A DNA stretch of 64,000 bases from Lama guanicoe (lineage: Eukaryota). The notes beneath the pieces were generated by a model. That model had not been told where the DNA came from. It worked only from the letters and a program-made list of their open reading frames with translations, and searched no databases. Position 1 is the first letter of the stretch; the number at the start of each line of letters is the position of its first letter. Positions 24,211 to 64,000 of the stretch are shown piece after piece. Where the stretch lies: assembly GCA_013239625.1 (NCBI GenBank), contig MU053652.1, positions 7,183,902 to 7,247,901 on the forward strand, written 5' to 3'. The translations under genes and the position numbers were made by a program.

Positions 24211-25604
24211 TAAGTTTTGTAGTAGTTGTGCAGTTTAAGATTTAATGAAGATACATTTTATATATGTGTGTGTGTGTGTATATTTCGTATATTTAGTTAT
24301 TCTTTGAGTTGTCCAAACACTTGCTGAATATTTTTTGTCTTCTGTGCTCGATGTCAGACATCTTAACTGATTAAGACAGGTATGCACCTTGCCATCATGG
24401 ACTAGTGTGGACTGGAGAAGAATGGAATTAAACAACTGTTATTTAATTAATTATTTTATCCAGTTGTAGTATGTACTAAGATTGAGTAGCAGAGTGAGAG
24501 AAGTAGCAGAAAGAACGAGCACAGGCGTCCTGGGAGAGCAGATCAGTGAGAGAGAACAGTATTTACAGAGGTCCTGAGAGAGGATCCTGGAAAGCTGAAG
24601 AATTAAGGGAAGGCAGAATTCCAGAGTGAGTCACACAAAATATGGCTGGTAAGCTGGGTAGGCATCAGATCGTAAAATGATTTGTTGACCATTTAAAGAT
24701 TTTGGTTTTTATGCTAATATTATGTAATTACATCCTTGGTGTTAACATGGTCCAAGAGATGCTAATACCTATGAAATACATTTTTTGTATTAGAAATGCA
24801 TTTTCTGTCAATCACTGCACTATCATGACATCAGGTCCATAGCTTTTCCCTGTACCCTTTCACTCTGTAACAGTGTTTTAAGATATGATAACGTAATGGT
24901 ATTTTCAAGGTCAATGTAATAAAAACTACTTAATGTTTGTTAAAGCCAGAGAAGTTTTTCTTTTTGGATTATCAGTTTCATATTTTCTTTGCCCTTTTCC
25001 TGCTTATTAAGTGTAATGACTGGAGAATTTTTAATAGTTTATCCATTAAAAATTAGCAAATGAATATACTAATTTTGTGGTTTACATTTTTGTTACCTGT
25101 TGATTTACATTTTGTTACCTGTTGATTATATCACCACTGGTTGTGTTAGCATGTAAAAACCATTTGTTTAAATGCAAGTAAGTTGTTGGATTTTTTTTTT
25201 CCTTGTAATTGTTCGTTTTTAAAGAACACTTATGTTAAAAAGACCTGTACTGATTTCATTCATTTTCTCTGAGTCTGATTTGCAGTAGAAATATTCCTAT
25301 TGGCTAAATTAATTGTTTAATGATGAGGATTCACTCTTTCTGAGGCACTGTGACACGAAAGGGAAGTGACCCCTTTACTGGTATGTGAGAATCCTGAGTT
25401 AGTTCAAAGATTTCAGTCATACCAAGTGTGTTTTAACTCAAGACATTCATGCGAAGATAGTGATTAAAACCTTATCATTTTTAGTAACATGGCTATGATT
25501 CTCGGGCTGGTTCCTTAATACTATTTTCGTCCAATTGAGAGATGCCTACTCTGGTATGTCAGAATGCTGCACTCTTCCCACTGACCTGTGTCATTCCCAT
25601 TCTT

Positions 25605-26203
25605 TTTTTTTTTAACATTTTTTATTGATTTATAATCATTTTACAATGTTTTGTCAAATTCCAGTGTTCAGACCAATTTTTCAGTCATTCATGGACATAT
25701 ACACACTCATTGTCACATTTTTTTCTCTGTGATTTATCATAACATTTTGTGTATATTTCCCTGTGCTATACAGTGTAATCTTGTTTATCTATTCTCCAAT
25801 TTTGAAATCCCAGTCTATCCCTTCCCACCCTCCACCCCCCTGGCAACCACAAGTCTGTATTCTCTGTCTGTGAGTCTAAATTTCTGTCCTGTATTTACGC
25901 TTTGTTTTTGTTTGTTTGTTTGTTTTTGTTTTTGTTTTTGTTTTTGTTTTTTAGATTCCACATATGAGCGATCTCATATGGTATTTTTCTCTCTCTTTCT
26001 GGCTTACTTCACTTAGAATGACATTCTCCAGGAGCATCCATGTTGCTGCAAATGGCATTATGTTGTCGGTTTTTATGGCATGGCTGAGTTCCATTGTATA
26101 AATATACCACATCTTCTTTATCCAGTCACCTGTTGATGGACATTTAGGCTGTTCCCATGTTTTGGCTATTGTAAATAGTGCTGCTATGAACATTGGGGTG
26201 CAG
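25605..26203 (-). mobile_element. Young 5'-truncated L1 (lineage-specific), antisense in POT1 intron 3
   Basis: Poly-T at 25603-25613; intact ORF2 C-terminus (MFIAALFTIAKTWEQPKCPS...WIKKMWYIYTME..., 25951-26193); TSD TCCCATTCTT (25595-25604, 26210-26219), extendable by GTGTCAT with a 1-nt indel. Confidence 0.92.
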
Positions 26204-28741
26204 GTGTCATCCCATTCTTGTTTGAATGGCTTCAGTATGCTCTTCTCAGAAACTTAGAACAATGCATATTAAATCTCATTCTCAACTCAATCTAATGAAT
26301 GTTTATACAAACTAATACAGCCTATTGTATATTTATCTTTCTTATTCTCTGTATTTGAATTAATTTTAAAGCCAGTATGATTAACAAATTCATGGGAATG
26401 AGTCTAAGAGCCATTTAGTTTTTCCTCTCTTTTATTTAGATCTGTACTTCAGTTTTTACCAGTGTTAATTAATTTATTCAACATATGTTTGTTGATCTCT
26501 GGTTATGAACAGAAGCCTCCACCAGTCACTTGTAGGGGTTTTTCAGGTAGATAAGACATTCTTAGTCCCAATAATTTTATAGAGTTTTCAGGGCAGTAAA
26601 AAGACTAAGAAAAGTTTACAAGTATACATACAACATGAAAAATATTAAAATGCTGACTAGGAAAGTTCAGCAGAAGGAAGAATTATTTTTCCTTCTTCCT
26701 TCTTTGGGGTACAATCTAATGGAGACCTCACAGGGAAGAAGCATATACAGCCCACATTTTAAAAGATAGATAGGATCAGATAGGTGCAGAAGAGAAAAAT
26801 GCTATTTATAATTAGTGGGGGCTCAGAATACGCAAAAAATATAGGTGGAAAAGTGCTGGGCATACAAGAATCTGATTTGTATAATATTGAATGGAAGTAT
26901 ATGGAGATAAAACAGGCAAGGTCACATGAGATCACTGAGGGCCTTCAGTGCAATTTATATGTGTATATTCAAATGTAAATTCATGTTTATAAATAAATGT
27001 TATTTTTCTTTTCTTAAAATGTGTTTTTGGTTGTTATTTCCGTGTTTTCGAATGTATGCTAGAGGAAGAGTTGTAACTTTTTAACTGAGTTGTGTTGCTA
27101 ATGTTAAAATAGAATAGTTTTTTTTTATTTTGATGTAAGTACTGATATCCTGCTTCTAATGATTTATTCTTTCTCCATCATGAAAGAAATACTATTCTTT
27201 AAAAGTTCTGATTATACAGAAAAATAGAAAAATGTGCATCCCTACCACTGACACTTGCATTTAGTGTATTTATTTCTGTATAATACTTATGTTTAAGACA
27301 TTTTTAAGTGAAATAGAAAATAACATGAGATAGGTTATTTTCTGTGCTTTGAAGAGACTTTGGAACTGACAAACCAATGACTTCTCTACTTCTGTTTATC
27401 TTCCTATGTTAGTTTGACTAAACTTTAAATCTTTGACTAAGATCATAAATTTTCGTTTAAATCAGAATATACTGGTCTAAAGTAAATTGACAAAAATTGC
27501 GTATTTTTCAGTTTTTAAAAGTAATTATTCCAGAAAAAATTTACTGTTTGTTTTATTCCCCTTTAAAACTGCCTAAAACATGGTAGAAACAAAATCTTCA
27601 GTGAGAAGGAAAATTTTATCCATTTAACTTCGAAGAATTGTGGTTATTTAGCATTAACAGCACATATACTATTGTGTTTGCAGTCTCACTTGCAGAAAAT
27701 AAATGCAGAAATTAGCGGAGTTAAAGTGTCTGGATAGGGCCAGAGATTTTAGAAAGGCATTTTATGATCCTTCCTTTGATTCATAGACAGTTTATGGAGA
27801 GCCTACTTTGTGCCAGGCCCTGTAAATGCAAAGCAGAATAAGACATGACCCTTGTCTTCAGGATTCTCACAGCCTAGTTAATGGACCTAAATAGAGAATC
27901 CTAGGGATTGACACCACACCCTTGTGTGTGCAAAGCAAAAATCACTAATGGAGAAGACTTCCATTTGGTAGAGATTAAGATTATTGAAGGAAGCTGCCTA
28001 AAGCCCAGGAATCTCAGTGTATCTTAAGGTTTTGGTGTTATAATTAGAGGATATTTTATATAACACGTATATAATGCAGCAAGACAAAACTCATTGAGTG
28101 TGGTTGTTCCAGTATTTGAAAAAGAAGGAAAGGGAGATTTAAATAATGAGAGAGGCAGGAATAAATGGAGATTGGCTTCTTATTTCTGTTACAAATCTAA
28201 GTAGAAAGAAAATACCTTTGTTCTTTTTCGTATGCAAATGAAAATTTCCCATTTATGTCTCATACCCTGGATCTTTATGCACATGTATTAGCTTTGTAAT
28301 GAGGAATTTTTGCACTAGTGATATGTCTTTCTCAATGTAGTCTTTCTGAGATTTAGTTTCGCTTAATTTCCATCCTGTTGAATCATCACTGCCTTTTCAT
28401 TGTGTTTATCCATGCAGACTTACTCACATAAATTGAGATAAACATTGATTTTTGAAGTCCCACTAAAGAAATAAAAATTTCTAAGTGGTTTAGTCAGTGC
28501 GCTCCTGGTTCGCAACGTGGGGCAGCGTACTTAACTATGGTTACATTGCTGAGACCCTTTTACATGAGGCGGTAGTTTCAATCTTATATTCAAAAAGCAT
28601 TAAATAAGTTTAGGCTAACCAGTTTTTCATTTTATAGAAATGATATTTTCCTATTTTTAAATAGTAATAAAAATAAGGATCTATATGGCATTCAGACTTA
28701 CAGGTATTTTGATGATTTTAAAATTATTTTTTCCTATGTAG

Positions 28742-30451: not shown

Positions 30452-30566
30452 GTTCAAGCAACACATTATGTATATACACCCCTGAATCAACTCAAGAGTG
30501 GCATGATTGTCAATGTCTATGGTGTTGTGAAGTTCTTTAAGCCTCCATATCTAAGCAAAGGAACTG
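30452..30566 (+). CDS. POT1: POT1 exon 6 (115 nt; [38 protein letters not shown]), OB1
   Basis: tctttctcTAG|G acceptor; CTG|GTAAGT donor; translation matches POT1 OB1 ([26 protein letters not shown]). Confidence 0.97.
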
Positions 30567-30669
30567 GTAAGTATTAAAATTGGTCAGGATTTTAATGGAC
30601 TGGAACTGCTGTATTGGTTTCAGGAACACAGCTCCTTCAGTACCGTCTTAGAAGCTCAATTCTGGTTTA

Positions 30670-39194: not shown

Positions 39195-39847
39195 CCCTAA
39201 AGCATATTTTACTCACCTTACCTGCATCCCAACATGCTTCTGGGTTAGATGTTGCCCTGTATTTGCACTGTGCCTATCATTGCTCTGATCACAGTGTGAT
39301 TTTACTAGTTTGACTCTAGTTTCTATCCCTTTTGTAGCAGCTAGCACAATCCTTAGTATAAATCAGACCTTCAGTATTTAACATGTGAATAACATTTAAC
39401 TCACATACATTTATCTGTTTTTATTGTTATTTGGATAATTATGGAAAAATCTTAAAGACTTTTAACATAATGTTGCACTTGAAATTACAGATTTATTTTC
39501 TATTGCCTTATTTCTTCCTAAGATTCTGGTAAGGGAGTCTGTGCTTTGGGGCTCATTCATTCCATCTTTCTTAGAGGCACAAGTGTAGTTAATTAGAACA
39601 ATCTTCTGGTTGAATCACTGTAGTCTTTACAAAATTGTCTTCAATTTGCTGTGAATTCTGGGTCAAAACAAAGCTACCATCTGAACTTTGAATGTATCAG
39701 TATAATTTTTTTACTTGCATATTTCAAAGAAATAGGGTACACTGACACTTGGGTGGTATCATCTGCAGGTGATTAATTAAGGGAGAGAGATGTATTTTGT
39801 GTGTATTTACACTCTATGTTCAAGTTATATTAAAAAATTAAACTTTA

Positions 39848-40070
39848 TGGGAGGGGATGGACTGGGATTTCAAGGTTGTAGAGTGGATAGACAGGATTGC
39901 GCTGTGTGGCACAGGGAGGTATGCACAGAATGTTGTGATGAATCACGGGGAAGAGAGTGTGGCGGTGGGTGTGTGTATGTCCGTGAGTGGCTGAGAGATT
40001 GTGCTGAGCGCTGGAGTTTGACACAGCATTGTGGAATGATTGTAAGTCAATAAAAAATGTTAAAAAAAAA
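39848..40070 (+). mobile_element. Young 5'-truncated L1 3' UTR tail, A>G hypermutated
   Basis: Colinear with the reverse complement of 25614-25827; AATAAA (40049-40054) and A-tail; 15-bp TSD AAAAAATTAAACTTT (39832-39846, 40065-40079) at a TT/AAAA site. Confidence 0.92.
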
Positions 40071-40199
40071 TTAAACTTTTAAACAATGCACAGGGTAGAA
40101 AGTTGTGAGAGAAGATTAAGTGTGAAAGGGGATTCAAAAGGGGTAGATCACTTCTAGTTCTGGGAATCTTGAGAAGGTGTTTTTAGAGAAGGGCCCTCC

Positions 40200-40400
40200 T
40201 GATGTACAGTGCCTTGAAGATTACATGCAATTGCACCAAAGTCGTAAGAGCATTTTTTTATGTATTATCTCACTTGATCCTCAAAAGTCTCTGTGTATTA
40301 GATTCTTGTTACTCCATTTTGCGGATGAAAATCCTGAGACAGAGTTTAAGAAGCTTGCATAAGGTCACAAAGGTGATAGAATTAGGATCTGACTTAAAGA
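40200..40400 (-). mobile_element. MIR SINE
   Basis: 'tgtattatctcacttgatcctcaaaa...ccattttgcggatgaaaatcctgagacagagtttaagaagcttgcataaggtcaca'. Confidence 0.7.
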
Positions 40401-54789: not shown

Positions 54790-54996
<207 letters not shown>

Positions 54997-57475: not shown

Positions 57476-57787
<312 letters not shown>

Positions 57788-63060: not shown

Positions 63061-63199
63061 ATATACATCATATTTAAAGGTTACCAGATATTTGGGGAAT
63101 ACATTTAAGTACTTTTAAGTTACATTACCAGCAAATAAAACTCTTTTAGCCTCCCTGGTTTCACAAAAAGATCCTAAACTTTGCTCTACCCTCTTGCAG

Positions 63200-63355
63200 G
63201 TATGGGATGGCACCAGGACCCCATTCCCATCTTGGAGAGTCTTAATACAAGACTTTGTTCTTGAAGGTGATTTAAGTCACATCCAACGGCTGCAGAATCT
63301 GACAATAGACATTTTAGTCTATGATAACCATGTTCCAGTGGCCAAATCTCTGAAG
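63200..63355 (+). CDS. POT1: POT1 exon 9 (156 nt; [52 protein letters not shown]; aa 183-234), OB2; gene continues past the window
   Basis: ccctcttgCAG|G acceptor; AAG|GTAATG donor; hallmark KVWDGT and IDILVYDNH motifs. Confidence 0.98.
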
Positions 63356-64000
63356 GTAATGTTGAGTAGCAAGCATGTTTGCTTTCTTGTATTTTATAAA
63401 TTTTAGAGTAAATCACATGTGAGATAATATTTGAGATCTAGAAATTAAATCCAAATTTATTTTGTCTTTAACTTTTAATTTGTAAAGTGTGTATTTAAAA
63501 TAAATTATTAGAAGATATATTAGATTATAATGGCTTGAACAGCTTTTTTAAATTAAAGAATATCTTCTCCTGAATATCTTAAAAGCTGTGCCCAATTTTA
63601 TTATGGAAGTAAGGAAGAAAAATTTGATTCTATAAGATACACTTTTTTAAAATGACATAGGATGCATACAATATTTGTAAACTTAAATGATAAGTTTTGT
63701 TAATTGGGTTTGATAAAATCCAGTCTGTAACTTTGTACTGATTAGTTTAAGAAATTGTTAATCCACTTCTGAAATACCTTACAAATTATGTGTCTGTGTG
63801 TGTAACCATACAGTTTATTAGAATTTGCCCACTCTTTTTTGAGATAGTGTTCTAGCTAAAAGCACACTGTTTAGTCACAGCATTTCTTGCTTATTAATAA
63901 CATTTTAAGCAATTTTTTTCATTTTCCTATATCTTATATTAGCAAGTGTTTTTCTAGCAAAGAATGGTATCATTAATCATAATGATGATAATAATAACAT

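Follow-up and report, generated by a model that had tools for sequence, protein, structure and literature searches.

The window analysed here is a 64,000-nt stretch of the Lama guanicoe genome (GCA_013239625.1, contig MU053652.1, positions 7,183,902 to 7,247,901 of the forward strand). It holds four coding exons of POT1, which cover the first OB fold and the start of the second. All are on the + strand. The first (30452..30565) encodes residues 4-41 in human numbering. Its ORF, 30452-30574(+), is nearly identical to human POT1 over these residues, and the exon matches PDB 3kjo_A (E=1.9e-17) and positions 1-32 of Pfam PF02765 (E=2.2e-5). The next exon has approximate limits of 54862..54996 (within 54790-54996) and matches PF02765 positions 33-82 (E=1.8e-12). 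Two more lie within 57476-57787 (Pfam POT1 positions 82-140, and POT1PC) and within 63119-63403 (POT1PC). The Pfam scan covered 415 of the 683 ORFs of at least 38 aa, that is those outside 12.5-25.9 kb and, on the minus strand, those up to 41.3 kb. The insertion studied here falls between 30452-30565 and 54862-54996, so it is inside a POT1 intron of about 24 kb and is in sense orientation to POT1. This agrees with the initial annotation, which had put it in a POT1 intron. A second L1 copy, used only for comparison, lies upstream of the exon at 30452-30565 (25602-26212, minus strand). Nothing suggests an effect of the insertion on POT1; the copy is a 214-nt intronic fragment.

The insertion runs from 39832 to 40079. 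These limits, taken from the initial annotation, are exactly the first and last base of a target site duplication (TSD). The 5' copy of the TSD (39832..39846, 15 bp) is identical at 15/15 positions to the 3' copy (40065..40079), and all 9 As in each are unchanged. The target begins directly after TT, so the cleavage site was TT|AAAA, the usual L1 endonuclease site. Between the two copies of the TSD is a 5'-truncated L1 3' tail of 214 nt in sense orientation (39848..40061, + strand). It carries 41 A>G changes and otherwise has the majority state of its family. The L1 polyadenylation signal AATAAA (40049..40054, +) is unedited. The remnant of the A-tail (40062..40064, +) is 3 As long if the TSD is counted in full, and the 9-nt A-run at 40062-40070 that merges into the 3' TSD is unchanged as well. 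It was right, then, that the TSD, AATAAA and A-tail had been called untouched. With a TSD, a TT|AAAA site, AATAAA plus an A-tail, and 5' truncation all present, the insertion is an L1 product of target-primed reverse transcription. Between the 5' TSD and the first L1 base there is a single A (39847). It is not part of the TSD, and the family has G at this position, so the base may have been added without a template at the 5' junction.

Over 214 nt, the tail at 39848-40061(+) gives a gap-free alignment with the reverse complement of 25614-25827 that has 45 mismatches. These are 41 A>G, 0 G>A, 2 G>T, 1 T>G and 1 A>C. The hand count given before (41 A>G, 0 G>A, 4 other, gap-free) is thus reproduced exactly, and the example strings quoted with it are present in the sequence. 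The comparison copy has 95 As; the G-rich copy has 53 As and 83 Gs. In other words, 41/95 As (43%) are changed. The comparison copy had been called a sibling of the insertion. It does belong to the same family, a young one of which it is an unedited 611-nt copy, but it represents a minority sub-lineage (tail positions 32, 155, 156 and 177) and is no close relative.

A pairwise alignment gives no direction. It is conceivable that the G-rich form is ancestral, and that the comparison copy and its relatives are G>A derivatives of the APOBEC3 type. Nothing beyond the pairwise alignment speaks for this. The rest of the family was examined in the 2.05-Gb assembly that contains the window. The 40 best-scored genome matches to the comparison copy are all 95-100% identical to it (the 100% match in the top row being the copy itself), and the 3'-terminal 19-mer of the L1 tail has 7104 exact matches. 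This L1 family is young and abundant in the genome, and the POT1 insertion derives from its majority type. Its sub-lineages include ones marked by T>C at tail position 182, by A>C at 95 and by C at 37 (519 exact pattern matches). When 29 young copies were aligned (L010-L038), an A was carried by 27-29 of the 29 at each of the 41 changed sites, and the random sample described below carries A as well. A family consensus with G at these sites was the result that the initial annotation had named as fatal to its reading; the consensus has A, and the comparison copy as a G>A derivative is ruled out. The reversed scenario would also need identical hypermutation of thousands of copies, and we give it practically no chance of being correct. 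At the four mismatch sites that are not A>G, it is the comparison copy that has a minority variant, while the G-rich copy agrees with most of the family. Against the column majority of the family the insertion therefore has 41 A>G and no other difference. We consider it settled that the direction of change is A->G in the G-rich copy. Sense G>A changes of the APOBEC3 type number 0 in this copy and 2 among the 345 differences of the 18 A>G-rich copies described below.

The Gs are real. Sampled words of 39650-40250 are present at a share of 0.95-0.98 in 14 public runs, which come from 12 samples, five studies and three organism labels. The sequences of the runs were available as Logan contigs, which are assembled, rather than as raw reads. 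Contigs of four runs were aligned to the locus. Three of these runs (X1, X4 and X7) each have one contig across 39650-40064 with 0 differences from the assembly, 0 gaps and a depth of 10-30, as expected for a single-copy sequence. These three represent three studies and two organism labels, and one of them may be the source of the assembly itself. The fourth run, X8 (organism C), has a word share of 0.95 and no contig over the unique flank, and such a gap proves nothing. In the RNA-labelled runs X15-X20 the word share is only about 0.1, which makes them uninformative on expression. An assembly or sequencing artefact has no point in its favour, and identical contigs from three runs together with a high word share in 12 samples put it next to impossible. 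The initial annotation called the insertion germline-fixed. This holds in the sense that it is present in all 14 high-share runs from 12 samples, and in that sense only.

A G-rich sequence could also arise without editing if it belonged to an old G-rich subfamily, or if it was altered after insertion by mutation or gene conversion. The genome does hold old copies at 79-88% identity. To sample the family at random, we took the exact matches of the 3' 19-mer (7104 in all) and used the first 100 of them in the genome listing. Two of the 100 were too close to a contig start; 98 were retrieved and 97 aligned. There is no A>G-only cluster in any of the 97, and the highest A>G count in a single copy is 9/29 differences. 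Pooled, the 97 copies have 1028 differences: 189 A>G, 226 G>A, 90 T>C, 134 C>T and 389 transversions. The background share of A>G is therefore 189/1028 (18.4%), and the probability of 41/41 at this share is about 7e-31. Among the 45 random copies with at least 8 differences, the A>G share reaches 0.5 in none. The spectra of old copies are balanced and rich in transversions, which that of the G-rich copy is not, and an ordinary old subfamily with balanced substitutions, which the initial annotation had also listed against itself, is not what lies here. The pattern of the G-rich copy is common to no other copy. As for mutation after insertion, the G-rich copy has 0 differences that are not A>G, and its TSD is perfect with all As intact. 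At the rate seen in the tail, the probability that the 18 As of the two identical TSD copies would all be unchanged is about 4e-5. The intact TSD and the absence of any other difference mean that the changes were made before integration and that the insertion is young. Old subfamily membership, post-insertion mutation and gene conversion are together very unlikely. Two copies that matched the A/G pattern through chance point differences only (L210 and L211, G000:C1724, 850 kb apart) are a useful contrast to the edited class: they belong to an L1 subfamily that is older, have an identity of 91.7% with one another, and show balanced spectra.

The initial annotation proposed that the family be scanned for further A>G-only clusters. 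We called a copy A>G-rich if it has at least 7 A>G changes that make up at least 65% of its differences. Among the best 40 scored matches to the G-rich copy, 14 qualify; L060 is weaker, with 5/6 differences A>G. The search was repeated with two other edited copies as queries (best 40 matches each, from which the 20 best new places per query were taken, each query also returning several copies already known). Of the 40 new places retrieved, 4 are A>G-rich. This gives 18 copies, so the insertion in POT1 has at least 17 companions. In the 18 copies, the POT1 insertion included, the A>G changes out of all differences are 41/41, 32/35, 29/31, 25/26, 21/23, 19/23, 18/18, 18/20, 15/16, 14/15, 14/15, 12/14, 11/13, 11/12, 11/13, 8/12, 8/9 and 7/9. 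Pooled, A>G accounts for 314/345 differences; T>C accounts for 12, C>T for 5 and G>A for 2. The A>G changes are always on the L1 sense strand, though the copies lie on both genomic strands. Of the 31 differences that are not A>G, 17 occur at five recurring positions: 182 T>C in 7 copies, 95 A>C in 4 copies, and three others in 2 copies each. We read positions 182 and 95 as sub-lineage markers. With the majority type added, these markers would mean that no fewer than three source lineages gave rise to the edited RNAs.

These copies are separate insertions, as their TSD targets, edit patterns and sub-lineages differ. Exact-match TSDs of 11-16 bp, each with a different target sequence, were found at 6 of the 15 loci scanned, one of the 6 being the weaker L060. 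The other 9 gave only 7 nt or no TSD in this crude exact-match search, which is no evidence that a TSD is absent. The edit patterns vary, with a largest pairwise Jaccard index of 0.46 among the 18 copies. Even so, 38 of the 41 sites of the POT1 copy are also G in some other edited copy, which means that there are editing hot spots, such as tail positions 43, 150, 38 and 149. It must be noted that the other copies were found by their similarity to edited queries, and the sharing of hot spots and the pooled figures carry an ascertainment bias as a result. The POT1 copy is the most heavily edited one found. The best other match to it in the genome is 86% identical, so no other copy has its pattern; it was a private event and did not found a subfamily. 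By this identity and the largest Jaccard index of 0.46, the copy is not the source of the whole edited subfamily that had been suggested as possible. Editing events are rare, as 0/97 random copies show. With at least 18 edited copies among about 7000 family tails the rate is roughly 0.3%, a rough ratio that is a lower bound, and the upper bound is 3% (0/97).

Two side observations deserve mention. L069 (G000:C4142, tail at 1501-1710 of the locus) and L209 (G000:C4153:9292200-9293300, 532-677 of the locus) are on different contigs and have five A>G changes in common, at tail positions 42, 43, 47, 52 and 106. They are 97.9% identical over 146 nt, and L209 ends at tail position 110. Either a local duplication or the copying of an element that had been edited before could explain the pair, which is the only hint of a propagated edited pattern. 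L002 (G000:C5752) has about 28 extra nt and then a second A-run after tail position 214, before its 15-bp TSD. Either a short 3' transduction or a downstream polyadenylation site would explain it.

The bases next to the changed As point to the enzyme. In the G-rich copy the changed As, sorted by their 5' base, are 11/16 after T, 21/35 after A, 5/15 after C and 4/20 after G (chi-square p=0.006), or fractions of 0.69, 0.60, 0.33 and 0.20. These are the counts given before (A 21, T 11, C 5, G 4), along with the statement that about 2/3 of TA and 1/5 of GA sites are changed. Of the As with a 3' G, 8/10 are changed. When the 18 copies are pooled the fractions are 0.33 after T, 0.27 after A, 0.09 after C and 0.08 after G (p about 1e-21), and a 3' G again gives the highest fraction, 0.27. 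The pooled figures carry the ascertainment bias described above, but the test on the single copy does not. A portion of Porath 2014 (PMC4365171) describes G as depleted upstream and enriched downstream of ADAR sites. The order U>A>C>G on the 5' side and the preference for a 3' G seen here are those of ADAR. A dense cluster of A>G changes only, on one strand, at roughly half of the As is likewise what ADAR hyper-editing is expected to leave.

The edited domain has sharp limits. Its extent was mapped by aligning the loci to L011, a copy with 1.5 kb of upstream L1. The A>G changes are confined to tail positions of about -16 to +199, the same ~215 nt of the L1 3' tail in each case. L004 spans the whole 1.5 kb and has 13 A>G in the tail bin and 0-2 in each upstream bin of 150 nt. 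Five other copies that reach 150-400 nt upstream have few or no A>G beyond about -70. At the other end, from tail position 202 on (AATAAA and the A-tail), As are almost never changed in 15 A>G-rich copies. Limits of this kind fit a duplex of defined extent, while an error-prone polymerase on the same template would not be expected to respect them. The tail does not seem to form that duplex with itself. We rejected self-folding of the tail RNA as the editing substrate since it is not significant (z=-1.31; 21/200 shuffles fold as well). Without a significant fold of its own, the tail was probably paired with a different segment of RNA. This may have been an antisense L1 tail, either in trans or within the same transcript.

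The length of the edited copies is a separate matter. The edited domain starts with a G-rich tract, and 9 of 14 A>G-rich copies have their 5' end no more than about 70 nt from it (L011 1458-1528). An extension of at least 215 nt upstream of the tail is found in 2/14 edited copies, compared to 11/25 unedited matches of the same query (p=0.08) and 28/54 when all unedited copies are taken (p=0.015). Reverse transcription may be stopped by the RNA being edited or duplexed, or by the G-rich tract. However, the alignment breaks at a microsatellite, which makes this weak trend towards short copies uncertain, and we keep it out of the evidence.

If adenosines were deaminated in the DNA rather than in the RNA, the strand would reveal it. 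Deamination of dA in the first-strand cDNA reads as T>C in the sense strand. We searched the genome with IUPAC patterns on two 34-nt segments of the tail, with one hot base forced to the changed state and the others left free. With A->G forced, segment 1 has 35 matches, 23 with no extra G, 3 with one, none with two and 9 with three to seven; the distribution is bimodal. Segment 2 (10 As, 11 Ts) has 63 matches: 58 with none, 3 with one, 1 with three and 1 with seven, the last being the POT1 copy. In total, 9/35 and 2/63 matches have at least three extra A>G. The mirror search for T>C on segment 1 gave 519 matches, and among the 100 listed, 96 have no extra C, 4 have one and 0 have two or more. 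The C forced in this control is a common sub-lineage marker, which leaves it little power, so the control was repeated on the segment with 10 As and 11 Ts. It gave 31 matches, 29 with no extra change, 2 with one and 0 with two or more. Thus no T>C hypermutated class was seen: 0/131 examined matches have two or more extra T>C. The power of these tests is limited, as they have fewer variable sites than the A>G tests and as the first of them covers 100 of 519 matches. This argues against deamination of first-strand cDNA and fits editing of the sense RNA template.

We argue that the insertion is very probably an L1 RNA that was hyper-edited by ADAR and then retrotransposed in the germline. That is a reading of sequence, and the enzyme, the duplex with its partner strand and the cell type are the parts of it that we infer. 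The sense transcript of a young active L1 family would have been part of a dsRNA in its final ~215 nt, a stretch that opens with the G-rich tract in the 3' UTR and ends some 15 nt short of AAUAAA. Within this duplex, about 43% of the adenosines would have been deaminated to inosine by an ADAR enzyme. In a germline or early-embryo cell, the L1 machinery would then have used the edited RNA for target-primed reverse transcription at the TT|AAAA site in the POT1 intron. The reverse transcriptase would have taken each inosine for a G and halted prematurely on reaching the G-rich tract. The outcome would be what is seen at this locus, a heritable, dead-on-arrival copy of 214 nt with 41 A>G. The initial annotation reached the same reading, of a hyper-edited L1 RNA inserted by target-primed reverse transcription that left a heritable record. 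It stands up here, and each of its own counter-scenarios failed when tested.

Two other routes to the same sequence should be weighed against RNA editing in a duplex. One is misincorporation with no RNA editing at all, either during reverse transcription (rA:dC) or during second-strand synthesis (dT:dG), as might happen when nucleotide pools are out of balance. Such errors would also be specific to one strand, would precede integration and would spare the TSD, and T:G is a common mispair. This route has trouble with where the changes are. They end abruptly about 215 nt from the 3' end, also in copies whose cDNA went on for up to 1500 nt, and the first ~25 nt to be copied are spared. It also has to produce the neighbour bias of ADAR, with 5' G and C depleted and 3' G enriched. 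We find polymerase error improbable.

The other route keeps a deaminase and changes the substrate or the enzyme: for example, ADAR would act on the insertion intermediate as an RNA:DNA hybrid, or single-stranded L1 RNA would be the target of some other adenosine deaminase. A portion of PMC12925331 cites Zheng 2017 for deamination of dA in DNA:RNA hybrids by ADARs in vitro. That no dsRNA partner was found here is also in its favour. However, RNA that is edited after being copied leaves no trace, and the deamination of dA in first-strand cDNA should have produced the sense T>C class that 0/131 examined matches belong to. Deamination of 43% of As by ADAR's neighbour rules is typical of long dsRNA. 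We rate this second route unlikely too, only slightly less so than polymerase error. ADAR editing of a duplexed L1 RNA accounts for the direction, the strand, the domain and the neighbours of the changes.

On this reading, inherited DNA keeps a record of an RNA-editing event. An inherited edited copy means that hyper-editing can reach L1 RNA in cells from which the germline draws, and that RNA rich in inosine can still be retrotransposed. At least 17 further copies with the same domain and hot spots make it possible to study this genome-wide and across species from assemblies alone. A wider claim can be made only tentatively, and we hold it to be possible but rather doubtful: hyper-editing of the L1 3' tail may be a recurrent germline event in this lineage, with the edited RNA a usable template that yields mostly very short copies. 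If so, genomes would be a fossil record of germline dsRNA and of ADAR acting on L1, one that gives the duplexed segment, the hot sites and a rate, about 0.3% of copies. In that case L1 could be held back by ADAR editing, which could also make new repeat copies diverge by about 20% in a single step. The topic is of clear interest to the mobile-DNA and RNA-editing fields.

The mechanism we propose combines known parts. A full-text literature search found no report of ADAR-edited L1 retrocopies in any genome, and an earlier description may nevertheless exist. Carmi et al. reportedly described retroelements hypermutated G>A by APOBEC3 and fixed in genomes in 2011. Part of Knisbacher & Levanon 2016 (PMC4866542) covers such APOBEC3 G>A hypermutated retroelements fixed in vertebrate genomes. 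The likeness is close: a host deaminase leaves a strand-specific cluster of one type of change, the copy is integrated and inherited, and it is detected against its subfamily. The difference is that those elements, mostly LTR elements, were deaminated C>U in first-strand cDNA and read as sense G>A, while the copies here are sense A>G. First-strand C>U deamination does not produce sense A>G, and this again points to editing of the RNA template.

A>G hypermutation is also known from avian retroviruses. Portions of PMC12925331 and PMC8586724, which summarise Felder 1994 and Hajjar & Linial 1995, describe it in Rous-associated virus as well as in avian leukosis virus, and the former mentions a conversion of nearly 50% of As to G in an inverted-repeat region that is attributed to ADAR. 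As is proposed here, a duplex region of retroelement RNA underwent ADAR-type editing that was kept in DNA after reverse transcription. However, those viruses are exogenous and were studied in infected cells, whereas the POT1 copy is from a non-LTR L1, was made by target-primed reverse transcription and is inherited through the germline. It also has at least 17 further A>G-rich copies beside it, 4 of them with a clear TSD of their own. The hyper-editing of inverted repeats by ADAR1 in transcriptomes, as given in part of Porath et al. 2014 (PMC4365171), is alike in its dense A>G changes, in the depletion of G at -1 and its enrichment at +1, and in being confined to one segment of a repeat, which forms a duplex there and would do so here. 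There the changes are differences between RNA and DNA and are not inherited; here they are in the genomic DNA of several samples.

The roles of ADAR editing in how retroelements evolve have "not yet been determined" according to a portion of a 2016 review (PMC4982230). Excerpts from Orecchini et al. (PMC5224506, PMC8677026) report cell culture work in which no A-to-I was seen in L1 RNA and the restriction of LINE-1 by ADAR1 and ADAR2 was independent of editing. Recurrent editing of L1 in the germline would contrast with this. The two systems agree in that ADARs meet L1 RNA and its ribonucleoprotein. They differ in that, going by the copies described here, hyper-editing of L1 RNA does at times occur in vivo and does not keep the RNA from being retrotransposed.
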